The notes below the pieces were generated by a model. It was not told the origin of the DNA and made no database searches. It saw only the letters and a list, made by a program, of their open reading frames with translations. This document shows, piece by piece, positions 9,276 to 60,216 of a DNA stretch of 64,000 bases. The translations under genes and the position numbers were made by a program. Source of the stretch: Antedon mediterranea (Eukaryota; Animalia; Echinodermata); assembly GCF_964355755.1 (NCBI RefSeq), contig NC_092678.1, positions 3,550,422-3,614,421 of the forward strand. The letters are read 5' to 3'. Position 1 is the first letter of the stretch. Every line of letters starts with the position of its first letter.

Positions 9276-10236
9276 TTATACTACATGTATTACTAATACG
9301 AATGGATACAAACACTAACGTTGCCTTGTAGTAACAATAGTCATTTCAGGTACCGGCAAATAGTAAGTTATATCTAATAAATTAATACCCCGGCCACTTG
9401 TTTGTGATTCAGCACTACATTTTTTTTCTAATAAAATCATTAGATAAGCTTTGAATATATTTATCAAGGTCACATTATAGTCTTAACCTAGTTTTACAGC
9501 AACAATGCAAATTCATATTAATGTCAACAGACAAATACATTAACATCTAAATATTAAATAATTATATTATTTTTTTAAAGTTCAATGACTTTAGTCATTA
9601 CAATATTACATCATTATAATAGTACTGTAATACTTGATACGCTGTCACAATGTTCTAAATTTGTTCTCTATTTTCAGTGCTTCCTTAATATTCTTTTGGT
9701 ATGGAACGCTACTAGATCGATAGTACTCAACTACTAACTCGTCATGTTAAAGCTTTAATCAGAGTAAGTACACTATAACAATATATTTTACAACTTTTCT
9801 TCATCTGTAGAGGTCGCTAACTACATTTGTAAATGTTTTTTGTTTTGTATCCATATTACGCCTCTTTCTTGTTTCCAATGACGTCATTATTACGTGTACA
9901 GTATATCGGAAGTTTCAAAACTTTAGAGGTCGCTAACTTAACTTTAGAGAACTTGATGTTTGGATATTTCATATCCATCGTCGCACACAACAACAACGCT
10001 ACTTCTGTAGAATTCTTATATATCAAGATAACAACGTTGGAAACGTCCTTTTTTACAAAGTTTTCGTATTAAATATGTCTTTATTTTGGTTCCTTCAACA
10101 AAATAACTTAAAAATGATCAACCGACCAAATTTCAATGTTTTCAAAGTGTTATACTGCGGTATGTTTTATTTAGTTCATATAGGCCTCAGCAACAAAATA
10201 ACTTAATTTACCAAAATGTTTTTAAGTTGCCAGTTT

Positions 10237-13200
10237 TCAAAGTCTTGACATTTTATACTGCAGTATATCATTTTTAATACTAAATTCGATGATAGCCTGA
10301 GCTTGGTACTTCTCAGCATACATACCAGTGGCATGGTCTATATTTTTTGCCCAAGCTCGGCATTTTATACGAAAGTTAAAATTGAGTTTCCTTGGTACGA
10401 TGCGTACTAAGACTGCAGGTGACAAATATTGACGCTGGTAAGGCCATCGTTCCGTCTCCATGTAAGGAAAATGGTGGAAACCGAATCCGTTTTTCGGATA
10501 TATTTTGGTACTATTTAACCGTCTTTTTCGATCCACCTTTAAGAAAAGAATAATATAGAATGATTGTCAGTGAATATTTTATATTTTCAAGATTACATTT
10601 TTATTTCATTACTTTGTTCTTTCACCAATTCTATAATGTTTCTGTGGACAGATAGTTAGTTAATTTCCTCCATAATACACACAGAAAGTTACAATTAGAC
10701 GCCGCCGCAGACTTTCTGTGGGTTTTTGTCCGCAATTAGTCCAGACGTTAAACCATCTTCATCGTCACAGTCTTTTACTTTGGTCGTAAAAAAAAACTTT
10801 CTAGTTATCAAAAAATATTTCTACAAACTTACGATTTCGTTACAAGTGACCGTAATATAGTTTGTACGATGGTGTCTGGCAATTTTCTTTGGTGGCTTTT
10901 TGTTATAGTTCATTGGTATCCATTTCGAAACCTAAATAAAAGATATAAATAAATAATAACTTTACTGAATAAGATAATATTATACAGGAGATCGTTCACA
11001 TCGATATATGCCATACATTATTGACAGTAGGGGTTGGTCAAATGCAAATTGCTAATTCTTCTATTTTGCATTTGGCGTAACTTTGTCAAACTTGAATTGA
11101 ACTGATGTGTTGGCTGAGGGAAATAATTAGTGCAATTTGTAGGCCTACTATACCTTGGTTAGTTGCAGCATAATACACGGTTGTCCACTTGCATATCCAA
11201 ACGAATTGGCTGGAGAACACCAACTACCAAACTGGCGTTGCTTGAATTTGCATAATCGGCCAAATTGTTTCTGTTGCGTAGAACCTTCGGCACAGTTTTT
11301 ATACACTCCTTTTTGTCTGATTGGCATATAATCTAAAATTCAATAGGCAATTGATACGTTTAGTAGTCGATATTGTCTTGTGGCGACATGCATTCATAAA
11401 ACGATAATGTATTTCGATTATGTTTCAATAAATGTTCATAGAGAAAATTTTAGAAATGAATTTTCATTTTCAGCGTTTGAACTTACCGTCATACAGTTGC
11501 ATAAGTTGACTTAGGTACGGTGCGTATGACGTCACATCGTTAACGTCATAATCTATGACGTTTCCACATGTTAAAGGATAGGATTGTAAACCTGTAATAA
11601 ATGAATTTAAAATGAAATGATAAAAATGACGTTTTTTTTAAACTACCCATTTTCTATCTCTAAGCAGTGAGATGAGTTGCCTTAATCTGAACAGTTTGTT
11701 TAAAGCTACAATGGGCGTGGCTAGAGTGGATGTGGTCAGCATATAATACTGAGTGAGGTCTACTCCTCCCTCTTTCCCCACTATTAATACATAACATTAC
11801 CTTGTAAGGCAAACCTGTCATCACAGTTGCCTTGTTTAATGATAAGTATACCGAGTGACCGCTGCATATATAAACATTCAATTTCGCATTTTGATCGGAA
11901 TGTAATTTCTTGTGTGCCGACGAGTGCGCACACTGGTGCGTATAGTTGTAAAGGGCAGCAGTCTGTGTCACTTAATTCAGCCACTATTGCGTCACCAAGT
12001 CCAGACTCACTTGTGATACCTGTTGTGAAATACGAATAAGAAAATTGTTATTCACAGATTGCAGAACCACTGTGTAAAGTTTATTCTGTACGGTATGATG
12101 ATTTTAAGTTAAGCTGCTCCTGTTGACTGGAGAAAAGTTTTGTAAGGAATGTATATTCTTAACCAGCTACAGTCATACCTTCTGATAGTGTTGTAGGGGG
12201 AACTCTGCTTTTGCAATGCCCTTTATAGGCAGTTCTTAGATTAGAGTTCCCGTCAGGTTGACAAGCCGCAAGCTCCAGAAAACATGCCGAAACGTAGGTA
12301 ATTCCATCAGTTCCACATACCTCCTCCATGCCACTTATAGGACAGTAGTGAGGACAGATATTGCCTGGATCATTCATGTCTATTAGATAAGAAACAACGT
12401 TACATTAAATGAATGAGAGTTGGGCCAAACCCAGAAAGAGGCTAAGCTATAGCTCCACTTGCAGACACCAAAACCGTCACGGGAACTGGTATAAGGAAAC
12501 CCTATTCTATCTTTTGAATGATTTATAAATGCGTACTTATCAAATAACGCTGCTGTTGTGAATAAGGACTGCATCCCATCGTCTGCTTCATCACGTGTTT
12601 CACTTCGATCACACACCATAATGTGAATTGGAGTTAAGCTAGCTCCACTTGCAGACACCAAAACCGTCACGGGAATTGGTGTAAGGAAAACCTATTCTAT
12701 CTTTTGAATGATTTATAAATGCGTACCAACCTTTATCAAATGGCGCTACTGTTGTGAATAAGGACTGCATACCATCGTCTGCTTCATCACGTGTTTCACT
12801 TCGATCACCATAATGTGAAGCACTATGACCAAACTGACTGGAATCTGAAGATGTTCGTTCGTTAGCCAATTCTGAGCTATCCTCATCGTCCTCATCTTCG
12901 TCGTCATCGTCTTCTTCATGGTACCATCGGTAGCCTGGTCGGCATTTTCCACGATGCCTAAGCTGTAGCATAGGGTCAGCTTCCATACAAGCAGTTATTC
13001 TGAGAAAACACGCTGATAAATAGGTATTTCCATCGGTTCCACAAACTGGAACTGCATCTAAGGTATGGATGTTGCACAGTTTACATCTGTCTCGGATAGA
13101 AGTGTCATGGCGAGAATCTAAAAACATAAAGAAACAAATGAATAAAAAAGCATTAATTTAATAGTTCAGATGATTAACTGTATTGTTTGTTTGAATGCTG

Positions 13201-13446
13201 TTCATTTATGTTAGGCTATCGAATACGGAATAAAACAAATATGGGTGCTCATCTTACGACGATGGTTCCAATCTGGTTATAATAAATTTATTTATTTAAC
13301 GTAAAACTTTGTAGACATATTTTGACAGCCCTATAGACAAGTAATTGCAACTTACAATCTCGATGTCTCCTTATTGGTGCCCGTGATGCCACCATGGTCA
13401 TAGATACAGCTAAACAGACGAATAACACGCTCTTCTTTGACCACAT
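10237..13446 (-). CDS. Secreted 3xKazal + Na+/K+-ATPase beta-subunit-like ectodomain fusion protein (about 526 aa, no TM helix)
   Basis: Exons: 13446-13356 (signal peptide MWSKKSVLFVCLAVSMTMVAS), 13117-12731 (Kazal 1 + D/E tract), 12379-12179 (Kazal 2), 12019-11801 (Kazal 3), 11591-11487 (GLQSYP...IDYDVNDVTSYAPYLSQL), 11332-11154 (NC...LCKF...WCSPANSFGYASGQPCIMLQLTK), 10931-10833 (VSKWIP...ITVTC), 10536-10237 (IYPKNGFGFHHFPY...YLSPAVLV...IKCRAWAKNI). All introns are GT-AG; 1581 nt in one frame. Confidence 0.85.
12451..12819. repeat. Tandem duplication (period 190 bp) spanning the exon 2/intron 2 junction of the fusion gene
   Basis: 12451-12627 is nearly identical to 12641-12819. Both translate as DRSETRDEADDGMQSLFTT on the minus strand. 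Confidence 0.9.
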
Positions 13447-16400
13447 TTTTTCAACCGGAAACTACGAACCACCGCAATACCTAAACCTAGAGAGAAATGA
13501 ATCAAATCTTGCATGAATTTTGTACAACATGTCTGCTGACTCATTTAACTTATTTTTCTGCTGAAATTATTTTTGTCTCTAGACCTTGAGTTTGTCAGTA
13601 GCGCCAATTACAAACTTATTAAGATTAAACATTGATTTGAGGAAGATAACCCGTGTTCTGAAAACTTTACATATAAACAGAATGTATTATAAGTCAAGGG
13701 TAATTTTGAATATAGAAATTGTGTTTTCTCACGAAGACAATAGGGTATCAGGTTGATTCAGTTTACAGGTCACCTGAATATACTCTGTGAAAATGCATCC
13801 GTAGCGTACCATGTAAATGAACATTTCGTTCAAGACGCGGCACTGAATATTACGCAGCTATCGAGTAATTCTGCGCATGCGTATTATGCTTCTGAGCTTC
13901 CTAATATTGTTGCCTTTTATGTTCCGTTTGTTTATGACATGGTAGAATATAGACATAAATTATATAAATAATTAATTAGCGGATTCACACGTAGTACTGA
14001 AATGTCTTTTGGAATTGAGGAGGAAATTGGCAGAGACTTTGCTAGGCCCTGGTATTGATATTTACAGGAAACACGAAGCAGACGACATGTGGTGTGAATA
14101 GATAATTTTTTCCTGGGGAGAAGAGTCTAAGGAAATCACAGTAAACAACCCACCCTATTGGACATTGCTGTCCCATGAGTGAGAAGCTGTAATACTCTGT
14201 TTTTACTTAATTTGTTTTGGATCGGAACTAGAGATTCCGCATTTCATTTTAATATCATTCATAACATTTGCAGAAATATTTTTTTGACGAGACAAATCGA
14301 CGAAAATCTCAGTAAACCCAAACCACTTGTTGCCTCTTGAAAGCTTTCTTCGGGGCTTTCTTGAATTTATAATAACATTTAAAAACGTTTTGAAGCATTC
14401 TGTTGGGATTTTTGCTTTTGTTTTGTTGCCAATGTATTTGTGAAAAGTACAGCTATTTATTGTTTTGATTATTAAGATAAATGGTTTAATTTTTAAATAA
14501 AAAGTGGATTAAATTAGAATTCACATACAAATATTCTCAAAGGCTTTTTCGAATATCAAATTAAACTTTCAATATTGTTGTTATGAGAAGCAACATTGTT
14601 GTTTCTTTTTTAATGTATTTACCTTCCGCACAGATAAAACAGTTAAATCGACAAGTTTTACATACAAGTACAACTTTACATACTATTATTGGATCGCCTA
14701 AGGACATTTGAATAAACTATTTTAGTATTATCACAGTTTTCAATAATAGTTGAGATATATTTCACTGTGAGTTGACAAGTTTAATGGAGAGTTTTACGAT
14801 AGTGTGTCAACAGGTGGCCTAATGGCTGTCCTTACAGCAATTATTCTATCTTAAAGGTAATTTATTGGCTCAGAAATACAAATTGCTGTTAATTTGCGGT
14901 TTATACACATGATACATAAAACTATAGTTACACGTCAAATGCCATGCATAAAGGTCAAAGGTCGTGACGTATATAGAAAACAACGAGAAGAAACAAATCA
15001 CATTGTTATATCGATGCAATGGTTGATATAAAAAATACATTTAAACTTTTCCTAGCAATTTTAAATTTCCTCTTACAGTACTTTAATTTTAACAGTAGTA
15101 AATTATGAAATTGATACAAGAATATAGTAATATTTGTCTTATGCCTACCTGTATTTCTATTTGGTGTCTAAACCACTATGATGTATCCGTCAGAGACTGT
15201 AAGCAACCATTCACATATCTGAAACATCAATCAGTTTGAAATAAGAATTTTCCAACGATGAGCAAAACATTATGTTTCGGTGGTTGACTGTATAAGCGGT
15301 TCCATGCGCAGGTCATATTGAAAGGGAATCAACGCATTTCCGTTGTGGTTTTCGGTTGCAAATGTAGAATAGTAGGTCTACTAGACAATTGTATCCGTTA
15401 ATGACGATGTATTGTTTTATTTAATGTTTCGCCATTAAGGATATTATTAATAGTATTCTTAGATAACATTTATATGACTCTATTAATCGATTAAACGTTG
15501 AAATCTAAGCTTTTCATCGAAAAGAAAAACTTATGTAGACCTATTTTTAGCTTTGCCTTTGCTAAATATTAATTGTTTCTTTCCATATAAAACCTTTGCA
15601 AATCATCATCATACATTGTATATATTTAGAATTGTGTATACTGTATAACGTTTGTTTATACGATCTAGATCTTAAATACACGTACACATCGCCAGGGCTA
15701 TGTACTCTGTTGACACAAGTATTAAATGCCGATATTACGCGTACGTAGCGCATTGTTACTAGGCAAGCAATATTCAAATATTATTTACGGTATTGACCTT
15801 ATTTAATCACAACGTACTAGGCCTAATTTCAACTAAGATAATATCGTAATGCTTTTTCTATACTTCACGAGACCTACTGTACTACTTAAATAGCCCATTA
15901 GAGTATTATTAGCTACGCGTTAGTATTACTTACTTGCACTGTAGTACTACTCTTAAGATCCTAGAAGATTACATCCATTAGTTCATACCTATTTGCATTA
16001 GGCCTACTTGATGAATTTTGCTTGATTGGAGTTTGAAGACAGTATACAACCCCTAAGGAAACCCATATAATCTTATCCGTCCGCTGGTCGAGTCAAAACC
16101 TCAAATTATCAATGAAAATAACCACTCGAAACTTTCCAATAACTTAATGTATAATAATTCCATCCGTCAGTCTATAGCACCTATCATCATGACATTATGA
16201 TTAATCTTTATAAAAATTGTAGGAATATCTAAGACGTCTGCGGTGCTCTCTGATTGGTCAATACATTATAGTAACCGACCAAAACTTATAGATTGATGTT
16301 TTAATAGGATTGCAAACAATTGAGAGGTTTTGAATTTTTTTTTATTTGTTCGAATCCAATCTTAAAAACGTTGATGTTCACATATGCTAATTTAAAATTT

Positions 16401-30605: not shown

Positions 30606-33600
30606 TTAACGTTGAGATAATATGCTTGAACCTTTCTTGGATGATAGAATTCTTGGAAGACTACTGTAAAAATAATAACGATAATAAATGTCATCAATAT
30701 TATGTGTCATTTTTTCTGTCAATATGATTCTGCAAAAATTATTCCTTCTTTAAGATAACAGTTAAAGGCATGAAGGAATTAGTTTAGGCTGAACTAATTT
30801 CTTCATTTTTTAAGCATATAATATTATTATGTTTTACCGTGTCGGTGTCAGTGATTCGCGTTTTAACAAGTCTCCGTTCTCAATGAAAGATTTGATTGGT
30901 TTTGATGGTTGTTTCTTTTCATAAGCTTCAATGAACTCTCGCCTTAGTGGTAGCCCAAGAGGATTCATGTCGCGCTGCTGACTGTTATCATTTTTCTGCG
31001 TATATTTTTCTTCCATGTTCAATGGATTATCGATTATGTTTTCATGCATCGACAGAAATAAAGGTATATATGCCATGTAGTCTATGAAAGATATCTGAAA
31101 AATAAACGAAAAGAGGATATTTAAATGCTGAATTAAAATGCAGAATTGATAATTGTCATTGAAACATGAAACATTCCCCTATCGACATGTGTTCGTTGGT
31201 AGGTACAATTATAATGCAACTTACGTCACTGTATTCATTTGGTTTCATTAATTTCATGACGTATTGCTCCTGTGCTCTATTTAACCCGCCAGCTCTCAGT
31301 TCAATTTGTAATGATTCGGAAGTGATATGGTTGTCACTTCGTTCAGAATTCACGTTACAATAAAACATCGCCTGCAAAAGTAGTAGAATGATAAAGATCA
31401 AATAAGTTAAAACTGCCTCAATATAGATTTATTTTAACGACATGTTTTGGGCATAGCCCCCATCATCAGGTGAAAAGAATTGTAACAAAGGATAACATAT
31501 ATAGAATGGTAATATACTAAGTCAGGAATAATAGGCATTATTAACTTAGAAATAGTGATTTCATTTTAGTTTACATTATCTTATTAGGGAAATGGACTGT
31601 AGATAATACATGATATATATAGTCATATATTAAGTACAGTATTGGCTTTAAAGAATCATAGGCCTACTGCTGTATTTTGTAATATGGTTCTTGTCTTTTA
31701 AACACTGCAATACTACGTACCTTGTATAGTTCCATTTTACGTTCTATATCCATCAAATCAGATATGTCAATTAAATGTTGACTGATCGGGCTGTAAGTAA
31801 AAAAAAAATTAACCAAAAAGTTAAGCATGTATAACGTTGGCAATTAAATTATGTACAAGTATTGTGGCGTAAAGTTATGCCAACTCACTCCATTGTGCAC
31901 ATTCTTTCTCCAAGTGCAGCCATAACTGAAAACATTTTGAATGTAATCATTGAATGTTCGTCGATATTCAATACCTAGAAAATAAAAACGGTTACATTAT
32001 AATAACACTTTGAACATGTTTCAGTCTGCCTTTCCATATTACAAACTTAAGATCATAGTCATCTTGGTCCACGTCTTTGTATCGTCAAGTTTGTTGTTTG
32101 TTTATTTTTATTTACCTTGAGGGCGTATGCAAGTTGTTTGGGTTTAAGTGTCTGTAAAGTTGGTATCCCTTCGATTGCTCCCTTAAGCTCCTGTAAAATA
32201 AAACAATTGGCATTTATGTTCCTAATTGAATCAATTACTATCGTAGGAATGATTAGTAAAGGTGATAGCATTTGAAAATGAAATACGCACATTTAAATTG
32301 ATGACGCAATTGAAATCGTCATCCTCAACAACAAATGCTTTGCCGTACGGATCAAGCTTTCTTTTTGCCACAAGTCTAAAATGCGATATGTAATCTATGG
32401 AACTATCTGTAGGAGGAGAAAAAAAACCAATTATTAATTTGTTTTACAGACATTAGAATGATAAAAAGTCGATGGACGTGCAGGCGAGATATATCGTGGA
32501 TGTGACATATTCTAAGAAAAGATGAAGATGAACCAGAAAAGGTAGGCTTTGACCGTTACCTCTTTCATCAATAAATATCGCTCTTTTGTCCCCTCGTTGT
32601 TTGTAGTCGTTCAGTTCTTCCGCTGTTGTCAGTACATCATCCAAATGTTTTTGGAGAACTTCACCATTTTTGCGAAAGGCATGCAGTACTTTCTTGATTC
32701 CAGTAACTGGAAAAAAATCACACCATTGAGAAGGAAATATTATTGAGAATGATAATAAATGTACGTTTTCTTATTATAACTACTGTACCTTGCCAATAAG
32801 ACTACTAGGCCTACTTACATTTTACTCGGCCACCTTCAGTTGGCGTCTTTGGCGGCGGTGGTGTTGGTTGAAAACCTCCCCACGATTCATTTTCCAATAT
32901 GATAGTCTTGGGATTAATCAGTAACGTTGGTTGTGAGACCAGTTTCCCATCCTCGTCAATAATTACTGATTCGGCGTCATCATCATCATCTGCCGCCACT
33001 GTTCCATCCATCTTTAGACGAATTTTACCAACGAATTTGCCTGCGGCGCGCATGCTCTGTGGGATTTTCACTCGAATTCTGGTACCATCTGGAGCGGTTA
33101 GTTCCAGCATTTCACCTATGATAAATAGGATAACAGTTCGAAAATTGTTACGCTATTATTGTAACTGTGAGACGGCCATGCTTTTCTTATCTTATTACTT
33201 AATAATCTCAAACTAAAATTGTAATGTTGCTAACATAGTGTTCATTTACGCTTGCGAGTATTGAAATGTTATTTATAATCATCTCCAAATGACTCACTTT
33301 TGGCTTTGTCTTTTTTGCTTTTTCCCTTGCGAGGTTTGTCTTTATTTCCAAACCTGTAAATGCAAAAGTACATACAAATTTACATTTATTCAGTTACTTT
33401 TTTCCAGTGTATGATGCTTAAAATTCAGTGAATGTTTTACTTACACTCCATCGTCCGAACTGTCATCGGATTCGTCACCTTTTCCTTTTCTACCACCTTT
33501 CTTCTTTTTGCCTTCTTTTAATTTCTTGATTACTTTTTTAATTTCTTCGTCTCCCATTTCGTCAATATCTACTTCATCTTCTTCACTATCAGACCCGTGT

Positions 33601-36600
33601 CCTGCCTTTCCTCTATTATAGAGAATATTAGAATAAATGATTGACATACAATAATATGGAGTTTGCATCATTACATTATAATTCATCATCCACATTTTGA
33701 CAAAATACTGATTTAACAATTACCTTTTATCTTTTAATCGGATTTTTGCTTTCAGAATATTCTTTGATAATTGTCTCTCGTCCTTTAATTTCTTTTTCTT
33801 CTTCTCTTTGACTCTCTTCTTTTCTCCTTCACTTAGATCACTGTCTATACCACTAATTTCGTCGCTGTTGACACTTTCGATTGAACTAGCGGAGCTCATT
33901 CGTTCCATCTCCTTTTTCAGTTCAACCACACGCCTATGAAAACGAATAAGTGTCATCGTTACATAATGTATTATATAATTTCTAATTATTCAATTAATTC
34001 TCAGCTCTCGTACCTTATTTGAGTTTGAACCAAAGCAGCTGTACCCAACCTCTTCAACTTTATTAACTTATTTTCAAGCAATGTTTTTATTCATACCTCC
34101 GTTTTTCTTTTTCCTTCTTTTTGGCTTTCCATTCTTCTTTCTTCTTCTCAGTTTTCTCCTCAAATCTCTTCGCTTTCTTTGCTTCCCTTTTCTGTAATTT
34201 CTTTTCTGCTATTAAAACTTTCCTCTCCTCATCTCCTAAGTTACTGTCTACGTCAGAAATGTCGTCACTACCTACACTGCTGACGTCACCAACGCTACTT
34301 ACCGGGCTCATCTTGCCTCTATTTCTATCAAAGTATTAACATAATTTGTTGATTACAAATATTGAATCTAAGAAAGTTATTTATTTGTTTATAATTTAAA
34401 GTAATAAAATTAGAACCTACTTTCGTCTTTGTTTTTTTTTCTCTTCTTTCTTTTTCTTTTTCTCCTTAATCTTCTCTTGTTTTTCAATTCTTTTTGTTTC
34501 CCTCTTTTCTTCTCGATCTTTCTTTCTTACTCCTTCCTTTTGTTCTTGCTTTTCCGCCTGTTTCTCTTGTTTTTTCTTTTCCTTCTTTTCTTGTTTCAGT
34601 CGTTTCAATTCCTCTTTTGTATAGTCGCCTTCAATACTTGATAGATCACTACTATCAACACTACTAACGCTACTGGCACTGCTAACAGCCGAGCTACTCG
34701 AAGGGCTGTACATTGATGAACTGTAATATAATAAACAGAAAACTTTATTGATATAATTGTCCTTGTTTATTTTATCATAGACCTATTTTAGTTTCGGCAA
34801 AACGCAATCGTCACAGAATGAAGGTTTGGAAAATCTGTCGCCTGCGTTGCGCGTATATCTTGCGATGCAATTTCTTCTTAGTATGAACAATGAGTTTCTC
34901 TGTTTACGGCTTTTAAAGTTATAAATTGTATATTATGTTAAAAGTTGATTGTTTGTTAAATATTAAAACTTACCCGTCGGAACTGGACTCATAAGAAGAG
35001 TCGCTGTCATATCCCCCAGAACCTATGAAATAAAAGTATATAACGTTTTATTTAATTCTTATAGATAATTTATTCGATGACTTGAATAGTTGATTTAATA
35101 TGTAGATGAAATAATAATTGTATGGTTACAAATCTGGAAGAAGACTCGGTATTATAATAGTTTAAATTAATTAACAACAAGTTTGATAGAAGATAAAGAA
35201 AGCAATAGACAAACAAAGTGTACTACGTGTCCAAAAGTGTGTCAAACCATACAACCACCATGTGCAAAAACCATCTATTTGTGCGGTGTGTACCATCTAT
35301 ACCTGACATACCGTGAAAGCGAAGCTTTTTGCTTGAAACAGTGTGTTGTGCTTTTGACTTATCCGAAGGTTTGGTGATGGATAAAGAATCGCTAGAAAGG
35401 GAATTATTATCCCCGTCATCTGCATTACGACGTCGACCCCACTTTTTATGGCGTCGACGTTTTCCGTGATTACCATGTGATATAGTTGAGTCTTCTGACG
35501 TATTAATTTCGTCACCGGTCTTTTGCGCTCGTTTTCCTTTACGACCTTTTTTCTTCCGTCGCTTTTTAGGTTTACCGTCTGAGTCAAGAGATTTTTCGCT
35601 GCTGTCTGTGTTGGAGGAAGAAGACTCATCATTCGTTTCATGTTTCCGGTGTCGACGGCGCCTTCGTTTTGGTTTGCCGTCTTCGTCTAGTTCACCTTCC
35701 TCATCCTACGTAGATGGGGATATAACAGTAGCAAGATTGTTGTCAATGTATGTTCAGTTGTGATATTGTTTGTGTGTGAAAGTTAACTATTAGATAAAGA
35801 GAATCATTTGCCAGAAACAGAAATTAGAAAGCTTACTGAATACGATGCTGATTGGTCCGATCCGTCATTATCGCTATGTTGTGATTTTCTTCCTTTTCGT
35901 CTCCTTCTCTTTTTACTTCTGTCTTTTCCCCCATCATGTTCGTCTTCATTCGACAACGTTGAGTAATCACTAGAATGACTACAGTCTCGACTTCTCTGAT
36001 TCCTGCGACGTTTCCTACGTTCGCCGTCCTCGCCAACTTCAGATACACTACCAGAACTGTAACTACCGTCGTCGTCTCGATGGCCACCGTCCCTTTTGTG
36101 CCTTCGGTTTCTTCTACCACGCCCTTATTTAAGTATTAAACATGATAATGTTCCCGTACTTCCACAAGTGGGAAGAAGCATTAAGGCAGTGACAACGTGT
36201 TATTACAACTTGTGCAATCAGAAAATAATTAATTGTGAAGAAATGATTTTATCACAATCAGTTACAAAATACAAACCATCCGAAAAAGGTAAAGCGGCGA
36301 CAAATCTGAAGGATGTTTAGTAAAAACAGTTTCATATAACTGTATGATTTATGTATTTTTTATAATTTTTTTTGGCATGGTTGGTATTTTGGTAACCAAG
36401 AAAGTTTAGCTTTAAAGCTAAAGTAGTTATGACGTCAGAGCCGTCATCTGTGTGTGAATACTTAATAGTGCATCATTAAACTTACTTGAATCTGTACTGT
36501 CGTAACTACTTTCATCTGAATATGACTTAGAGTGGTCGTTCGAATGGCGTCTTCGGTGCCGTCGACGACGACGTCGATGATGACTCCCATCTGTTTCATC

Positions 36601-39600
36601 ACTTCCACTAACACTTCTTTGCGATCTGGAATAATATAGATTAAAGAAGTAAAATGATATTCAGTTGTATTTGATTGAAAGGAAAATGCCGTTTTTAACT
36701 AAACTAAAAAACAGTAATTTAAAAAAAAAATGCATACCCACTTCGCCGTCGTCTTCGTCTGCGCCGCCTATTACCATTTCTTGATTGTTCTGAACCACTC
36801 GAATTATCACTGTAACTCCGGCGTCGTCGACGTCTATTCCTACGTTTGTTTCCTCCACTACTATCATTATCATCATCACTGTAATCACTAGATTGGCTTC
36901 TTCGTCGTCTGTGACCGTGCTTACCATGACGTCGATGACGTCGGTGTTTGTTGACCTCTCCGTCTTCATTGTCGCTTTCACTGTAACTGCTAGAGTGTGA
37001 CCGACGCCGCCTTCGTCGGGTTTTTCCATCTAAAAAATAAATAAAATTCAAATACTATTCACACATAAGCCTACATCGAAAACACCATAAAAACATTGTT
37101 AGTAAATTAACACTGTAAGCAGTGAATGCAGCAAAAAAAATGTATTAGCTTACCATCTCTACTCTTACGACGCCGTCTACGAGTCTTTTTGACGTGTGTT
37201 GTTCCTCCGGCACTGACGTATGACTCTTCTGAAAATGAGGAACTTCGATCACGACGACGGTGTCGCCGACGACGACGGCGTCTACTTCCGCCTCCAACGC
37301 TTCCAACACCGCTTTCATTGTCACTATCGTCTCCTCCTTTCCCATCCCTGAAGTTTAGAAAAATCGATTTTTTTAATAGTTTGTTTGTATATTTATTGAT
37401 TTTTAGTTGTAGTGATAACATGAAATTAGAACGAGAAACCATCATTTTGAAAAGTCAGACATCATGTGTTATTAAAAAGTCCTAAATTAACGCACAATAT
37501 AATCATATATCAGGCTACTATATCGTCACACAAACTCTGGTTCCTTTCATCGTGAAATGTAATTACCTTCTTCTGTGTCTACGTCGTCTGCCTCCTTTCC
37601 CGCCGACAACTTGACCTTGCCTGACACTCTCTAAACTCTCTTGGTATGCACTGTCGTTTCGAATTTTATGAACTGTTGAAAAATAATTAATTAACTGTAA
37701 AAATTCAAGTTTCATTTGCCATTTGGCATCAAATGCGAATGTTGTTTCAATATCGAGGCTTGTCTCTATAGTTTATTTCATTCCCTACGGACTAGCAATT
37801 GAATGTGGCTACTTTAAAAAGTTGTGCTATTCTATAACCAATACAAATAATACTCTGTACCTTCGACATATGCACCATCTTCGTTCACAACATATTTCTT
37901 CTTTGAGCTAACAAAATCTTCAAGTTTCTGGTCAGCGCTGAGACCTAGTATTCGCCTGGCTGCTACGTCATCTGTCTTCATTTCTTGGTACTCGTTCTCT
38001 GTTACGTACACGTACTGTTTGATTAATTTCCCGCTCTTTGTTCGTACGTACGTCTTCACTTTCCTTTTTTCTACAAGTATAAGAATTTTAATTATCAGTT
38101 CGTTTAAGATCATTTTTAAAGTAATGATTAACTAGTTGATCAGTAAACTGTAACAATAATATTGACCGTAGTAACACGTTAATATTAGTATTATTTCAGT
38201 GTAAATAGACCTTTCAATATTTTTAATCTATATTTATATATATATATAATTTGAGATAAGCTTGGTTCCCACTAGCGACGCAACACAAGGACGTAACGCA
38301 ACGCAAGCGTTTTAACCAATGACAAGCGAAGTTATAGACAGGTAGCAATCACAAGCGAATAAGCCATCGCTTGTGATTGGTCAATTCACTTGCATTGCGT
38401 TACGTCCTTGCGTTGCGTCGCTAGTGGGAACCACGCTTAAGGGAAAAGGGGTTTGCTATTGTAAAACTCGTTGGTGAACTGATGACAAAAAATGCCAAAA
38501 TGTGTGTAATACGTGTAGTTCCATTTTAAAGCGTTTTATAATACTGGCAGTGGCCCAATTTTATTTCGTATGAAATGTAATCTTACGTTGTGTTGCTCGA
38601 AGGAACGTCTTGTGTTCTTCTTCCTCTCTTAGTTTTGCTAGCCTTTTTGCTGTCACAACCGCTTGTTGTTTCGATTTCTAAAAGCAAAAAATATATAGCC
38701 TTAAACTTCGGTTTAAAAATACAAAGGGATTTGCACTTTATAAGACTATCTCATAAGTGCTTCCGACACAGCGTGTAAATGATTGTATTGATTTAGTATC
38801 TCCTTAAATCAATATTAATGTCACATAATTAACTTGGCTTCTATTCGTGTCCAAGGCTCGTGAATTAAATGTATTCAAATATTTAAATACATTAATATTA
38901 AATGTTGAATTGTAAATCAAATACTTACATCTTCGATGACATCTAAGATTTGTTTAATATACGAAAAACTGTGTCTGAATCCACCTCCAACACGCACAAA
39001 TTTATGCTAGAAGAAAAAACAAAACAATACGTTTAGTTTACAAATTTGGACTAAACATACCACGTGTTACCGTTGCAATAAGTAATATTAAATATAAAAT
39101 AAAATGGTACGATGTGCTCTTCCCAAAACAAGTTAAGCCTAGATATTGTTGTAATCCAGGCCGGTTAATATCGATTAAAATAACAATTTACGGAGGACAT
39201 ACAAATTAGGCTAGTCAGTAGACCTAGACCTATTAAGATGAAATAAAGCGCGTGGCTGTTGTCATAGTGTTGACCTTGCTAAAACAATTATGTACCACTC
39301 ATATCTGATTGTTATCCCAACATAATTACCAAATGTCAAAACTTAATAAAAAATTAAAAAACGACTGTATTTGTTTGATTCGAATGTAATTAGAGAAGTC
39401 CCTGGGCAGGTAACTACCAATCAGATTGCACATGCAAAACTCTCCCTGTGGGCCAAGTACTCTTTATCTTAATATCCGTAATACTTGTTTACGAGTTGAA
39501 AAACATGAATAAATCTGGGGCACTAATTCCCAAAATCGCCACTGTGTACATAACCGATGTTCGGATGAAAAAGAACAATAGAAATGATAGACAATATAAT

Positions 39601-43518: not shown

Positions 43519-44671
43519 GTATTGATTGATTGAGTCACTCGTAAAATGTACTACAGAACTAAAAGTAATATCCGAGGTATGAATTGATGACTAGGAAATT
43601 ATTTCTAATTTGCTGATAATTTTTGTTGCAGGAGATAAAAAACATGGAGTTATTACCTACACATGCCTAACTTGTTTACAAGAAGTCCATCTACTTGATG
43701 GTCAGCTGATGAATTAATGCACCTACTTTTCCGCTAATTAATTAATTACTTATTAGGGCCACTGATAAAATACAATCAACGCCGCTGGCCATACAATCTC
43801 CGTTACTTTTGATTCCAACCTCACAAACAACTTTCAGTAATTCTAAACATATGTCAATTGTAAATTCAAATGATTGAGATGTTTACTTGCAGGCACCGGT
43901 AGCAGTAAACTTTTTTAATTTAATCAGAGAGACGTTTCATTTGTCATAAATGATTAATACTAAGTTTAAACGGTTTAAATACAAAGAACACTCGGGCAAT
44001 AACCGAAACTTTAATCAGTTTAATACATCAGACTGAATTGAAAATGATAAAATAACTGACTTGCCCCTGTGAATAAATTAGTTATTTTCTTGACATCACG
44101 AAGGGAATTGTTATATCTTATTCTGGGACTACGTACATCATTAAACCATACAGATTACCGATAAACATTGAAACGGCTTACTAATGTATCATACTTTTAG
44201 GCTACACTAAAGTATTTATTTTAAATGATAACGTAAAAATAAGAATACTTAGGCCTAGGTCAGCTAACCTAAAAGGGTAGGCCTACATTTCATCCCATTA
44301 TCACTGTATATAAATGTTGTTAATTTGAAGGGACTGTACAATTTGCTAAATAAATATATAAATTAAATTAGCCAATAAACGATTATTATCGTAAATGAAA
44401 TTATCCACGTGTTTTTAGCAGTAAACATTAATTTATAATAATATTTATTTTAAAACTATTTCACGTCATATCCGGCTTCTGCTATCGTTGCACCGGAAGT
44501 ATATTTTACTGTACACGGTTCATTGCACAAATAATGAATATTCAACAATGTATGCAACGTAAGCCAATAAAGTGTTACATTATTGGTCGGATATCGATGC
44601 AGCGCGCGGGGACTGTGGTTTTGGAGAAGAGAAAGCACATGTTTTGGAACTAGCCACGAGTATAGTAAACA

Positions 44672-47600
44672 ATGTCGGGGTCTGTTGAAAACACGGGATC
44701 TCAGTCTTCAGTAAGGATCAAGCCAGAATTAGGACTTTTCAGTGGAATATGTGTGAATGTTGGAGTCATTATTGGATCTGGTATTTTCCTTTCACCAAAG
44801 GGAATTCTGGATAGTATTGGTTCGGTTGGTATGTCGCTGATCATATGGGTGCTGTGTGGTCTCTTTTCCACGATGGGAGCCCTGTGTTTTGCAGAGCTGG
44901 GCCTAGCAATCCCACGATACGGTGGAACATATGTTTATATTCGCGAAGCGTTTGGAGACGTTTTAGCTTTTCTTTTTCAGTGGACAATGATCGTAATTAA
45001 TATACCTACTTCTATAGCTATTATTGCGCTAACTTTCGCAGAATACGTTTTGGAACCTTTCTTTTTAAATGTGTGTCCAATACCATCAGTTTGTATTCGA
45101 TTGTTAGCCCTCGTCGGTGTCAGTAAGTTTTTTTTTTCTTTTGTTATGTTTTGATTGGTGAAACTCCACTTTATTAAAAGCTAACATTTACTTTGTTTGT
45201 CTAGGAATACCAATATCCAAAATTCCATATGGAAAACACATTGACTGTCCTGGAGGAAAAAGGGAAAAGCATGATTAAATCTTAGACTATAATTGCTTCC
45301 TCCTGACGTGTGCATATGAACATGTACATTCAAGTTAAGATTATCAATAAACGACAGCCGAGGCAATCAAAACAAATATTAATCAATAAAATTGTTTATT
45401 TAGGGCATGTTTGTTTGATATGTCTGTATATGTGTAATAAAATTCTGATTAGAAGAGAGACAGGTCTATACAATAATTTAATTTTACAATAATTTGTTTC
45501 CTGTGTTTAAAGTTTTTAAACTATAAACCTCTTATTGTGCATAAAAGCATATACAGTAAAAGAACTTTACAGTAAAGAATAATTGAATTGAGTAATTGAA
45601 GAATAAATCACATTTAAATTACAAATAATAAGCCAGACGTCACGTGTGATGATCTACAGTACATGTTTTGGGAAGTCGTCCATATAATTATAATGAATAA
45701 ATATATTATAATAAATAATTATTTTCACATTGTATGATATTATTGAATTTTTATATTGATACAGTATGTTATTTTGTTTGTTTGAGAAATGAATAAAATA
45801 TTTTACTTTGTTCAGAAATACTAGAGTAAGCATCTGTTTAAAAATTGACCAAACACAGGTTGTTTGAGAATGTCCAGACAAATTGTCTGACCTTCATCAG
45901 AGAGATACTGATCAAACAAGATTGTATTATATTGATTATATACATGAAATACTGTATGGTATTTCCCCATAAAAATAAAACACTTCTACGCTTACAGTTA
46001 GTATATTAATGTTTTTGCCAGTATACTTAAAAAAAAAAAATTATGTTTTTATACTAATTTTTTTTTACTATTTTCTTATTCAATACATTTTCTGAAAAAT
46101 ATATTTAAAATTATTAATATTTAATTAATAATGTAAATATAAATAATTGTACTATTTGTATTATAATATAAACTTTTATTTTCTTAGTGTCAATGACCTA
46201 CGTAAACTGTGTGAGTGTTCGTTCCGCAACTCGAATACAAGATTCTTTGACAGTAGCTAAAGTTCTTGCGCTCATTATAATCATCATAACAGGTTTTGTA
46301 GGCCTATTCAAACGTAAGTTACAGTAACATATTATTTTAAAGTCTTTGTAATGTAAGCAAGAAATAGAACATCCAGACTTTATTATAATAATAATGATAA
46401 TAATAAACCCACTTGTCATGATTTTTTCTCATGGGAAAAAAAAACTTAACTCAACTCTGAATATCTAACTTGTCACCATAAAAACTACTGTCAGTGTGCA
46501 GTATATATCTCTGTATACTATAAAATTGCACGTATGATCGATTAAAAAAGTTATTTAATTGATGAAAAAAACAGTACTGCAGACATTAATTCCCATAAAT
46601 AATTGCAACAAACACCTTTACTGAATATCTAATTTGCCATGCCATAATTTCCATTGATGCCCGTGGGTATATTTGGTCAAATTTTAGACTTAGTTCTGTT
46701 TCCTTTTCATTGTGCCATATTGCCACTCAGGTTTAAGGACGAACTGTAGTTTTGAATTTTGGTTTCCAACCATGCAGACATTTTTAATACTTTACAGAAT
46801 ACAGTACTGTAGTTTTAAATGATGCGTCACAAATTTGACCTAAAACTCAAGTTTATAATAATCCATTCCATTAGTTAAGCTGGCGGATCCATTATGATAA
46901 TTTTTATGGTTTAAATATTTTAAACATAGTTTGTTAAAAACAAGAATTTTTTATATAATAATTCTAAAACTTTTAGGTTCAATTGAGTTATATATTACAA
47001 TTTAGTATTGAAACTAGATGGAATATAGATTATGATATTTTTTGTTTCCAATCAACCAAATATTTTTAATTATTAATTTACGGTTAATTTCAGTTACAAT
47101 ATGGTTTGAAAATAAAGAATTTTTATATAATAATTCTAAAACTTTTAAGTTCAAGTGAGTTATTTATTACCATTTAGTATTGAAACTGGATGGAATATAG
47201 ATTATGATAATTTTTGTTTCCAATCAACCAAATATTTTTAATTATTAATTTACGGTTAATTTCAGTTACAATATAGTTTGAAATGGTGCATGAAGAAAAT
47301 CTATAAAATGAATTCCATCAGTTAAAGGTTGAAAGAACTAAGAATGATTTGTTTTACTGGAGGGAATTAATCAGAACAATTGGTTTTAAAATATATTGAT
47401 AATGTACTATTGCAAAGGTTTATAAATTTGGTCTCAGCTGGGTCCTACAGTAATTCATTTCTGTCAAGATTATGATAATCATTCTTAAGAATTATTAAAC
47501 ATTTTAATAAATTCTGATAGATTTATTAAGAAATATTGTCATGGAGAAAGTGCTTTAAACTGATGACCCTTCCAGGAAGATTTTGAAATTATTTGATGTA

Positions 47601-56958: not shown

Positions 56959-58089
56959 TTAATTTAATTATGTGCAAATATGGAGAATAAAAAGGAAATA
57001 GTGAGCAAAATATATCCAAAAGCGAAACACAAACCAAATTTGAATTTCTAACAAATTTTAATCAGTACTTTACTGTATTTTTTGTTTTGTCCATTTCAAT
57101 TTAAATTGAATGCAACATACGATGGTCACTTTTGGATGCGCACAAAGATCGGTTTGCTTTCTCTGCGCATCATTTAAATATTGAGGGCGCTATGTTTGTA
57201 AATAACAAAACACAACAAACAAATGAAGAGAGGAGAGCCTGCCAGAGATTTCTTTCAAGTACGTACGTAAATATTTGTTTAAAATTGTTTCCTAATAATT
57301 ATAACTAAACATATAAAATAACCAACTAAAGCTAGGCTAGGCCTTGCGTATGAATAGTAGTACTAGGCCTAGGAGGCCTAAATAAATGATGTGTAGGCCT
57401 ATTTACCAAAATCATACAGCTAAGGCCTCCCACACTGCACAGCCGATAAAGGATGAGGCACGAGCAGGTCCTCCCAGGTACATACATGCGCATGGTCTGT
57501 CTCGGCCTACAACAAGCCTTGCTCTAGTAAGACCTAGGCCTAGCTATGTAGTACGTAGAGGCCTAGTCTTATTTATTAGGCCTAGAAAGGTAGGCCCGGC
57601 TAGCTATCTGGTGAACTAGCTGTAATAGCGAAGTAGAAAAGAAGAGAATGTCAGCTGATTGTTCGGGTAAAACAAAATTGGTCATGCATGTACGTAAATT
57701 TTGGAGAAATAAAACACAACGTTTAGGACTGGTTCGTTTGATCAACTTGTTGGCGTAATGATGTGGTTAGGAAGCTAAGGGTTGTGGTTCGATTCTTGTA
57801 TTTAAAAAAAGGATGACTTCGGTGCAGCTATGTAAATTTAAAAAACCTCAATATTGTCAATAAATTTAAAAGTTGTGGGTTGTTATTATTTCAAATTACC
57901 TACAGTATATACCTATTTTCTCCTAATTTTATCTCCTATTCTAAAAGTAGGCCCTATGCCAGTGCTATTTCTTTCACTATATTGATCCATTTTAGAAGTT
58001 GCAACTGCTTTGAGAACCAAGTATCACTACTTTCTAATCTCTCTATTCTACTCTTTCTCTTCCTGCAGATTTCATAGCAATTTCACATT

Positions 58090-60216
58090 ATGGTTAATCC
58101 GGTGATTCTTCCGAATTCAGTTAGCAGTAAAGACTGGTCAGTTGCTGAAGAAAACCTAGACATTGTACTTATTCAGTTTTATCGCTGTAAATTATGCAAT
58201 AACAAGTTTAGCTCATTAAGTCGGTCTGTTGTAATTGCTCATATGATTGGAGTTCATGAATCGGAGTGGAAGGCAGCTTGTGTGAAGGTCAAAGATTCGA
58301 AAAATAACAAAGGGCTGGTAGATAATACAAGCAGTAAACAACAAGAAGTCATCAAAAATATATCAAGGGAACAGCAAGAAGTTATCGAGAATCTATGCAA
58401 ACAGTATTCTCCAACAAAAACTAATTTATCGTCTCCACCAAAAAGTTTACACACACGGATTATACTTGACAGTGATATGGTACCTCGTCCCACAAGTGCC
58501 AAGAAAACATGGAAAAGGTCTGCAGAACCCACATCAGAAAATGAACCACAGAATAAAAAGATTGATATAACAAAATCATACATTAGCAAAAGTAGTGCTA
58601 CAGACAAAACAACGGTGGACTCTTTATCAGTTAGTACTGGTTCTGTAGGACCATTGTTTAGCAATACAACTATGCCGCGGGCTATTTTGAGTGTTCAAAA
58701 TGGTGTTACCTATGTGACACATATTAACCAGCCTACTGTCACTTTAGAACAACCTGTTGTCACTATTGGACAACCTGCTGTTACCCTTGGGCAACCTGCA
58801 ATCACACTTGGGCAACCTGCAGTCACGCTTGGGCAGTCTGCAGTAGTGCTTGGGCAACCTGGCATTACTCAGGAACAACCTTGCCTCACTCTTGAACAAC
58901 CTGTGATTAATTTGAAATTAGTTTCTACAGATGGCAAAAACTTAGAACTACCTCAAGACTGTTCACCAGCAAAAGATAAGGAGATCTGTTGTAAGCAGTG
59001 TGGCTTTAAGTGTTCAAGCTGGAATGAACACTGGTCTCACTCGCACGAGCATCTACCAACCACTGAAAAAATACGATATCAATGCCAGACATGCAAAGTC
59101 AGCTTTGCTAGATATGGTAAGCTACATCAGCATCAGGAATCAACACCAGAATGTCGGGTACCACAGGGAAATGGAGTCTCACTAACAATTAGTTGTGCAC
59201 TCTGCAATTTCACAACAAACACCAGACATTCTTTAAATATCCATATAGGGATGCAGCACAAAGAGAAACCAAAAGAAATAAAGATTGTGTATTGTACTGG
59301 TTGTAATGCCAGATTTAATTCAAACAAATCACTACGCAGACATCACAAGAATGGAAGATGTGGCAAAAAAAGAGGTCGTCCAAAGGGAGTTAAATCAAAA
59401 ACTCCTTACAAAAGAAAATCTTGTCCACCACCAACATCACAACCAGAAATTGTCTGTGACCTTTGCAACAAAATGTTCAGAAAAAAATCGGTATATCGCG
59501 ACCATTATACCTCTCACTTTGAGGAACGAAAACAAAAATGTAAGGAGTGTGACAAAGCTTTCAAAACAAAGAGATCACTTCGGCAACATATGGTGGTGCA
59601 CAAAGGAATAAAACATTCCTGCGACCTCTGCGATTTTGACTCTTTCTGGATTGATAGTATTAAAAAACATAAAGAACTGAAACATTTCAGTGAAAATCTA
59701 CCATACCATACATGTTCAATTTGTCCATACAAAACGAAAGATTCACAAGCTTTAAAGGCTCATGTTAAGTATACTCATCTTGAGACAAAGAACTATATTT
59801 GTGAGACTTGTGGCAAATCATTTAAGTTGGCATCGGCATTGAAGTGCCATCAGGAGACCCACAACAAAGACATACCGTACCCATGCGATAAGTGCGACTA
59901 TGTAGGACACACACGATTCAGTCTGTACAGTCATAAGAAGGTGCATATCACTAAAGATGAGATGAAATATAAATGCAATCAGTGCTCTTGGACTGGCCGT
60001 CGGAGCAATGAGCTTGCGCGACATAAACAGAAGCATTCGGATGACAAACTTTTCTGTTGTCACCATTGTGGGTTAAGCTACAAACATAAACATGGGCTCA
60101 CCAGACATCTTAAAGAAAAACATGTCGGGCACAACTTTACAACTGTTGAAATATCGGAGCCAGAGGAAAGTATATACACAGATGATATTATAGTAGCACA
60201 AGTATTTGAAGTTTAA
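58090..60216 (+). CDS. Multi-C2H2 zinc-finger protein with an AT-hook, 708 aa, single coding exon
   Basis: Uninterrupted ORF with about 13 CxxC...H/H fingers and KKRGRPKG at 59365-59388. Acceptor CTGCAG at 58063-58068 just upstream of the ATG; AATAAA at 60541. Confidence 0.93.
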   Translation: MVNPVILPNSVSSKDWSVAEENLDIVLIQFYRCKLCNNKFSSLSRSVVIAHMIGVHESEWKAACVKVKDSKNNKGLVDNTSSKQQEVIKNISREQQEVIENLCKQYSPTKTNLSSPPKSLHTRIILDSDMVPRPTSAKKTWKRSAEPTSENEPQNKKIDITKSYISKSSATDKTTVDSLSVSTGSVGPLFSNTTMPRAILSVQNGVTYVTHINQPTVTLEQPVVTIGQPAVTLGQPAITLGQPAVTLGQSAVVLGQPGITQEQPCLTLEQPVINLKLVSTDGKNLELPQDCSPAKDKEICCKQCGFKCSSWNEHWSHSHEHLPTTEKIRYQCQTCKVSFARYGKLHQHQESTPECRVPQGNGVSLTISCALCNFTTNTRHSLNIHIGMQHKEKPKEIKIVYCTGCNARFNSNKSLRRHHKNGRCGKKRGRPKGVKSKTPYKRKSCPPPTSQPEIVCDLCNKMFRKKSVYRDHYTSHFEERKQKCKECDKAFKTKRSLRQHMVVHKGIKHSCDLCDFDSFWIDSIKKHKELKHFSENLPYHTCSICPYKTKDSQALKAHVKYTHLETKNYICETCGKSFKLASALKCHQETHNKDIPYPCDKCDYVGHTRFSLYSHKKVHITKDEMKYKCNQCSWTGRRSNELARHKQKHSDDKLFCCHHCGLSYKHKHGLTRHLKEKHVGHNFTTVEISEPEESIYTDDIIVAQVFEV

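Follow-up and report, generated by a model that had tools for sequence, protein, structure and literature searches.

A crinoid gene joining three Kazal domains to a Na,K-ATPase beta-subunit ectodomain that lacks its membrane anchor

Introduction

The beta subunits of the X,K-ATPases are regarded as obligatory membrane partners of the pump. Their role in adhesion is hard to separate from pumping, and the Ig-like domain of one of them, AMOG, is said to mediate adhesion. Here we describe a gene of the crinoid Antedon mediterranea, on the minus strand of a 64,000-nucleotide stretch of contig NC_092678.1 (the window, whose first letter is position 1), which encodes three Kazal domains followed by a complete beta-type ectodomain and begins with a predicted signal peptide. 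The initial annotation, made from the letters of the DNA, had proposed such a secreted chimera and had supposed that its ectodomain was released from the pump and reused.

Departures of a beta subunit from the pump have a precedent in the eutherian BetaM (ATP1B4), described as a co-opted beta, a type II protein of the inner nuclear membrane that works through a new N-terminus; BetaM keeps the membrane helix and carries a long, Glu-rich nucleoplasmic N-terminal region (PMC4778017). On the experimental side, an engineered soluble beta1 ectodomain is reported to remain adhesive (PMC6770782), so that the beta domain is able to work unanchored.

Gene structure and transcript support

The region is animal DNA with a G+C content of about 33%. 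Eight coding exons on the minus strand, separated by seven GT-AG introns of 154-351 bp with phases 1,1,1,1,1,0,0 along the gene, join into 1581 nt that encode 526 amino acids and end in a single terminal stop. The product is letter-for-letter identical to an uncharacterised A. mediterranea protein of RefSeq (XP_071961563/4, stored here as P0001); an automatic gene model therefore already exists, without a functional name. Since an in-frame TAG (13464-13462) lies in the same exon five codons upstream of the ATG at 13446, the N-terminus is fixed and extension by an upstream exon is impossible.

Five sequencing runs contain the stretch, none of them on record as RNA, and two of the five, X1 and X2, were compared with it. 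A single 3165-letter contig of X1, whose RNA status is a guess and which is an assembled sequence, not a single molecule, omits all seven introns, including the one at the Kazal/beta junction (11801/11591); the letters skipped number 296, 222, 154, 209, 159, 351 and 238, with GT-AG ends on the minus strand. Run X2 is continuous across 9500-12479. Of the coding positions, 11 vary between the X1 contig and the window, 10 of them silently (p ~2e-5, on our assumption that 72% of random changes alter a residue). The GT-AG joins, the 526-aa frame, the identity with RefSeq and this contig all agree with the original proposal that eight in-frame exons encode one protein: both halves are joined in the contig, which holds neither separate Kazal and beta genes nor a membrane exon. 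The features of the gene are as follows.

15149..15180, minus strand: 3' end of a non-coding 5' exon; the loose end of the X1 contig at 13488 matches 15151-15180 exactly (the row covers the 3' end only of that exon, and its donor is read from the sequence)
15148-13487, minus strand: GT-AG intron between the 5' exon and exon 1
13356..13486 (coding 13446-13356), minus strand: exon 1, with a short untranslated region (UTR), the TAG, the ATG, a predicted signal peptide (about aa 1-21) and RRHR (aa 26-29)
12731..13117, minus strand: exon 2, phase 1-1, with Kazal 1, the acidic run and a low-complexity linker; splice joints in the X1 contig
13085-12942, minus strand: Kazal 1, aa 42-89 (Kazal_2, E 4.5e-09)
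12917-12879, minus strand: acidic run of 13 residues, aa 98-110
12179..12379, minus strand: exon 3, phase 1-1, Kazal 2 at aa 168-215 (Kazal_2, E 7e-12; X1 contig)
11801..12019, minus strand: exon 4, phase 1-1, divergent Kazal 3 at aa 247-292 (Kazal_1, 21.8 bits), then DDRFALQ
11487..11591, minus strand: exon 5, phase 1-1, start of the beta ectodomain with Cys308 and the first strand and helix; the X1 joint skips 209 letters, and G300 equals beta1 G76 in the alignment and the structure match
11154..11332, minus strand: exon 6, phase 1-0, Cys 348, 362, 373 and 387, FGYASGQPCI, and LTK replacing LN[RK] (PF00287 E 5.3e-07 alone)
10833..10931, minus strand: exon 7, phase 0-0, W398-x-P400 and Cys424 (sequence, X1 contig)
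10237..10536, minus strand: coding part of exon 8, RKRR (430-433), the sole N-glycosylation sequon (N435), FPY, YLSP, CRAWAKNI and the stop (PF00287 E 1.4e-10 alone)
9676..10236, minus strand: 3' UTR; X1 record 2 covers 9676-10534

The last part of exon 2 and the first part of intron 2, together about 185 bp, are also repeated in tandem almost perfectly within that intron (about 12628-12450); the original donor is altered by a 6-bp loss, and the X1 contig makes no use of the copy.

Domain content and the missing anchor

The two halves of the protein are recognised independently. Pfam Kazal_1 is matched in three stretches, and each Kazal exon tested singly lies above a Pfam cut-off, the third barely (21.8 bits versus 21); a Kazal profile of our own gives independent E-values (iE) of 5.5e-17, 2.8e-18 and 7.5e-07 for Kazal 1, 2 and 3, the last with 16.5 bits versus 49-53 for the other two. 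PF00287 is found at aa 294-496 (E 5.9e-29, 101.5 bits versus a cut-off of 23.3), over profile positions 69-272 of 284. The match to solved chains starts at residue 292, opposite residue 68 of human beta1, which lies directly external to the membrane helix (DRFALQGLQSYP in the chimera versus DRVAPPGLTQIP in human beta1), and the DDRFALQ of exon 4 aligns with the beta1 stalk QDRVAPP.

The ectodomain model, built from a 26-row alignment, reaches a predicted local distance difference test score (pLDDT) of 87 and a predicted template modelling score (pTM) of 0.85. Its top structural matches are all beta chains (Foldseek E 8.9e-18), the best with Z 22.6 and a root-mean-square deviation (rmsd) of 2.3 A over 209 residues (beta residues 76-303) and human beta1 residues 76-303 with Z 21.6, unrelated rows staying at Z 5.9 or below; as beta homologues entered the model, these figures show compatibility with the fold and not an independent structure. 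The full-length model is poor (mean pLDDT 55, 295 residues below 50), and a helix at 264-289 in it was disregarded, since most likely it arose where Kazal 3 was aligned with membrane helices in the other sequences. The profile and the predicted Ig-like beta-sandwich thus agree with the earlier assignment of the C-terminal half, and the Pfam matches with that of the three Kazal domains. The motifs FGYASGQPCI, FPY, YLSP and CRAWAKNI are all present, and the six canonical cysteines (348, 362, 373, 387, 424 and 486) sit in invariant alignment columns; the account of the cysteines has to be widened by a seventh on the ectodomain side, C308.

As the initial annotation had stated, there is neither cytoplasmic tail nor transmembrane helix: the PF00287 match begins at position 69 of 284, and no hydrophobic segment follows residue 30. 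The strongest hydrophobic 19-mer is aa 7-25 (Kyte-Doolittle 1.84), the maximum past residue 30 being 1.18. The N-terminus has a basic n-region, a hydrophobic core at 7-20 and small residues at 19-21, a pattern similar in the orthologue described below, and the C-terminus is polar; the signal peptide is a prediction from this pattern and from hydropathy, judged by eye. Scored with a profile of the beta membrane region, residues 1-110 reach 1.4 bits and Kazal 3 with the stalk about -2, and over the whole window that profile finds nothing credible (best 10.8 bits versus 27-94 for five anchored betas). The type II topology of beta subunits is absent from the chimera. A hidden upstream membrane exon was looked for and rejected, the best tblastn match (E 0.078) containing a stop, and so was Kazal 3 as a remodelled membrane exon, which ranks 212-454 of 727 segments scored against the membrane-region profile.

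Orthologue and distribution

A full-length orthologue with the same 526-aa architecture exists in a second crinoid genus (Anneissia japonica, LOC117114442; 66% identity). By region, the ectodomain is 78% identical, the Kazal domains are 67-76% and the linkers 41-55% identical, and the highest-conserved stretch is the Kazal/beta junction itself, with 18 of 19 residues identical. The gene is under purifying selection. The acidic tract, announced as part of the design, is there in Antedon (aa 98-110, 13 residues) but is missing in the Anneissia orthologue and is not a conserved element.

A search of 1.84 billion cluster representatives returned 1310 matches, the best 150 of which were examined: 127 cover the Kazal part only, 22 the beta part only, and one, that of Anneissia, both. 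Another protein with three Kazals plus a beta domain should have ranked among these 150, and none from sea urchins or sea stars was found among them. The closest beta-only match in the same set is an anchored beta-1-like protein of Anneissia (P0022, 33% identity). As Anneissia thus retains a separate anchored beta, the chimera is, at least there, an extra copy and not a replacement, and the idea of an ectodomain freed from the pump and reused gains from its conservation beside such a subunit.

Other searches added no further case. None of 2891 candidate fusions of 558-2000 aa scored with the beta profile carried it, which is weak evidence, lengths of 400-557 aa being outside the range; word-based searches, with 16 and 81 candidates, each yielded just the two crinoid proteins and are insensitive, canonical betas having been missed as well; 17 pattern matches in metagenome contigs gave no confirmed case, and a feature-based Atlas search gave no usable match for the crinoid protein.

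Evolutionary origin and the acorn-worm forms

In a tree of 26 ectodomains (isoform P0003 omitted, full-length P0154 in place of P0079, no vertebrate row), the two crinoid proteins group with five echinoderm anchored betas (support 98/95), on a long branch to the chimera of 1.51 changes per column. The chimera also shares with echinoderm betas a C-terminal G[LM][YF] insert and an N[AS]T motif, seen by eye in the alignment. The duplication may be confined to crinoids or older, a crinoid-only clade having a p-value in the approximately unbiased test (p-AU) of 0.243. The first five introns are of phase 1, which makes the Kazal exons symmetrical modules of the shuffling kind. We presume that vertebrate beta introns lie at the same places (at the Gly of PPGL, behind LN[RK] and behind the fifth Cys); the duplication would then have occurred at the DNA level.

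Two of the 22 beta-only matches among the best 150 are hemichordate proteins that lack an anchor as well, XP_077987584 of Glandiceps talaboti and XP_070539165 of Ptychodera flava, both known from database gene models alone. Each has a signal-like hydrophobic start, a Cys motif C..C..CAYTFL..C, a likely coiled coil and a complete beta ectodomain, which is acidic (-10 and -21). Their N-termini are 31% identical (E 9e-12), with a heptad bias that is clear in one and weak in the other, and the beta membrane-region profile gives 0.2 and -1.7 bits on them, versus 27-94 for the five anchored betas. CAYTFL presumably resembles the N-terminus of angiopoietin. In the tree both group with a hemichordate anchored beta (84/87). 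Forcing the four anchorless forms into one clade costs 12.7 log-likelihood units and is not rejected (p-AU 0.072); the different N-termini, the opposite charges and the tree grouping favour separate origins, so that the crinoid and hemichordate forms probably arose separately.

Some further observations concern these beta relatives. P0070, a hemichordate protein of the anchorless type with Cys motif and likely coiled coil, and the anchored Glandiceps beta P0068 may be linked, since the contigs given for them share a length of 25,030,103. P0127 and P0166, of 238 aa and in the lophotrochozoan branch of the tree, have a 17-residue hydrophobic start before the beta stalk and no Asn at LN[RK]; they may represent a third secreted form or a truncated gene call.

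Ectodomain and Kazal changes

The ectodomain carries a net charge of +21/+22 in the two crinoids, the other 24 ectodomains of the comparison ranging from -21 to +2, and 30 of its 35 Lys/Arg stay basic in the Anneissia orthologue. The near-invariant Asn of LN[RK], a motif that contacts alpha, is found in 20 of 22 other rows, the exceptions being P0127 and the divergent P0097, and in none of the four anchorless forms with a predicted signal peptide; in both crinoids it is Thr. The extra Cys308 occurs in both as well, giving 25 cysteines in each mature chain. Two basic motifs, RRHR (26-29) and RKRR (430-433), are conserved in the orthologue and are putative cleavage sites, which we take to fit the furin-type consensus.

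On the Kazal side, the spacing between CysII and CysIII is 10, 8 and 8 in both crinoids versus 7 in 714 of 893 Kazal domains counted, so that none of the three has the canonical seven-residue reactive loop. The presumed P1 region varies between orthologues (PIS versus SLA in Kazal 2, QL versus DL in Kazal 3), and among solved structures the Kazal side matches follistatin and agrin better than ovomucoid or rhodniin. In both species the mature N-half is acidic, with 48 and 43 Asp/Glu versus 23 and 28 Lys/Arg, whereas the poly-acid run is specific to Antedon.

Possible functions

That the gene exists and has this architecture is much better established than any proposed function. The reading that we prefer, with a probability of about one half, is that of a predicted-secreted extracellular adaptor that binds polyanionic molecules of matrix or surface and likely no longer serves the pump. 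An echinoderm-type beta-subunit gene would have been duplicated; in the copy, a signal-peptide exon and three Kazal exons of phase 1-1 would have taken the place of those coding for cytoplasmic tail and membrane helix, with the new junction in the stalk, immediately external to the former helix. Pumping would have been left to the normal anchored beta. The freed Ig-like domain, by now strongly basic, would have sulfated glycans or acidic proteins as its ligands; the Kazal units would serve as spacers or protein-binding modules of the follistatin/agrin kind and not as canonical inhibitors, and the odd 25th cysteine, C308, would permit a disulfide to a second copy or to a partner.

Several points weigh against this picture. 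The transcript joints come from one run of one study, with the RNA status guessed. The charge comparison covers 24 beta sequences with no vertebrate row, and a high net charge names no ligand. A spacing other than 7 occurs in 179 of the 893 Kazal domains counted, so that loop length does not exclude inhibition. The main alpha-contact segments of beta1 are given as Asn182-Ile185 and Tyr69-Tyr83 (PMC6770782). The loss of the Asn in the former speaks for our reading; the latter maps to aa 292-307, where it is partly kept (DR.A..GL...P), within the stretch that is 18/19 identical between the crinoids and not clearly above the 78% average (p 0.057). A kept stalk would fit a retained pump contact equally well as packing against Kazal 3.

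The stalk, partly kept and conserved, can be counted for a different account, in which the protein is a soluble ligand or decoy of the pump, docking on the outer loop of alpha or, in trans, on an anchored beta, and modulating pumping or beta-beta adhesion. The full fold and all six canonical cysteines are retained as it would expect, and a soluble beta1 ectodomain is reported to bind beta1 in pull-downs (PMC6770782); the basic domain could even pair with the acidic ectodomain of a normal beta, that of the Anneissia anchored beta having a net charge of -8. We consider it unlikely all the same: the Asn of LN[RK] has become Thr in both crinoids, the chimera sits on a long branch (1.51 changes per column), Kazal 3 adjoins the stalk immediately, at the place that membrane and alpha would occupy, and alpha normally already has an anchored beta bound to it. 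Less probable still would be a targeted protease inhibitor, whose Kazal domains act on serine proteases while the basic domain tethers them to mucus, matrix or skeleton. Three Pfam-level Kazal domains conserved at 67-76% would suit it, and Kazal-domain proteins are found in echinoderm skeletal proteomes (PMC4336488); all three reactive loops, however, are of non-canonical length, the presumed P1 region differs between the orthologues, and the solved-structure matches favour follistatin/agrin over ovomucoid/rhodniin. The evidence thus leans away from both the pump ligand and the inhibitor.

That Kazal proteins occur in brittle star and urchin skeletons (PMC4336488) can also be set to the account of a biomineral matrix protein whose acidic N-half binds calcium carbonate and which is built into the stereom. 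The mature N-half is indeed acidic in both species, and a very acidic, predicted-secreted two-Kazal gene lies 3.4 kb beyond the 3' end. Yet the poly-acid run is missing in Anneissia, no urchin or sea star Kazal-beta protein is among the best 150 matches though all echinoderms make stereom, and 'ATPase' does not appear in the main text of the brittle star paper (PMC4336488); we find this account distinctly improbable. It is hardly credible that the gene is an artefact, two neighbours having been fused in annotation or by read-through, or a copy in decay: the joints do rest on one run, and contigs are assembled and not single molecules, but the same 526-aa architecture recurs in a second genus with 18 of 19 residues identical across the junction, start, signal and anchor are all lacking in the beta half taken alone, no credible membrane region lies in the window, and coding variation is nearly all silent.

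A broader view than the adaptor, which we hold tentatively, is that the beta ectodomain is a mobile extracellular module freed at least twice in ambulacrarians, yielding natural secreted ligands that signal to beta-mediated adhesion or block it. The crinoids would carry it behind three Kazals with a basic surface and the acorn worms at the tip of a coiled coil; angiopoietin-like proteins carry a receptor-binding head at such a tip.

Neighbouring gene and other frames in the window

The two-Kazal neighbour is a gene model of four exons (6259 to about 4730, minus strand) lying 3.4 kb beyond the 3' end of the chimera. It encodes a predicted-secreted protein of 292 aa that starts with a signal-like segment and has two Kazal domains, the second without its fifth Cys, separated by a long tract rich in Glu and Pro (81 Asp/Glu, 34 Pro); the product resembles acidic biomineral matrix proteins. 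As a donor of the Kazal domains of the chimera it was not supported, its domains ranking 366-870 of 914 in a set biased to the best matches of the chimera.

Elsewhere in the window, several long Arg/Ser/Lys/Asp-repeat frames at 32400-38200 on the minus strand (e.g., 37454-37110, 35705-35226 and 34782-34420) are apparently exons of one large low-complexity protein. A plus-strand frame at 44669-45151 resembles, by motif, the start of what we take to be an amino-acid transporter. Two convergent frames, 58078-60213 (plus) and 61652-60673 (minus), have similar Cys/His motifs (Y.C..C......M..H) and may be a pair of zinc-finger genes.

Comparison with known systems

No description of the Kazal-beta architecture was found in the open-access literature, though subscription journals and supplements could hold one; the absence of a characterised family or paper there accords with the initial annotation. 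What is new is the anchorless Kazal-beta gene; already known are both domains and, with BetaM, the precedent of beta co-option. A natural, selected gene for the ectodomain alone, beside a normal beta, would mean that the domain has a selectable job outside the membrane. The crinoid and hemichordate proteins offer natural soluble versions for probing the ligands of the beta ectodomain and the residues that serve alpha only; among the latter, the LN[RK] Asn, which none of the four anchorless forms retains, is a candidate. The locus also illustrates exon shuffling clearly, the phase-1 intron concerned lying next to a membrane helix. A natural anchorless beta, probably invented twice, would surprise pump specialists, narrow as its distribution is.

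With the X,K-ATPase beta subunits (PF00287; ATP1B1-3, ATP4B, AMOG/beta2), the chimera shares ectodomain sequence, the six cysteines and the fold, but it is without cytoplasmic tail or membrane helix and has instead a predicted signal peptide and three Kazals; its charge is reversed, it has one N-glycosylation sequon, it has lost the Asn of LN[RK] and it has gained Cys308. Lacking the anchor that defines the beta family, it does not belong there in the functional sense, yet it is a clear descendant.

Like follistatin, agrin and the SPARC/SMOC/testican group, which are weak Atlas neighbours, it has tandem Kazal-like modules; unlike in the chimera, no beta ectodomain appears in any Atlas row or solved chain listed for that group. 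The Cys-rich part that presumably precedes the Kazal unit in follistatin domains is not present in the chimera. The hemichordate XP_077987584 and XP_070539165 resemble it in their signal-like start, the lack of a membrane helix and a complete ectodomain without the Asn of LN[RK], and differ from it in an N-terminus made of a Cys motif and a coiled coil, not Kazal domains, and in their acidic ectodomains.

As in BetaM (PMC4778017), a beta gene has departed from the pump and acquired a new N-terminal region; unlike BetaM, the chimera is anchorless and predicted to be secreted, with the ectodomain among its best conserved parts. It has the anchorless ectodomain in common with sec-beta1, which folds and binds (PMC6770782); whereas sec-beta1 is a laboratory construct, the chimera is a natural gene with added domains.

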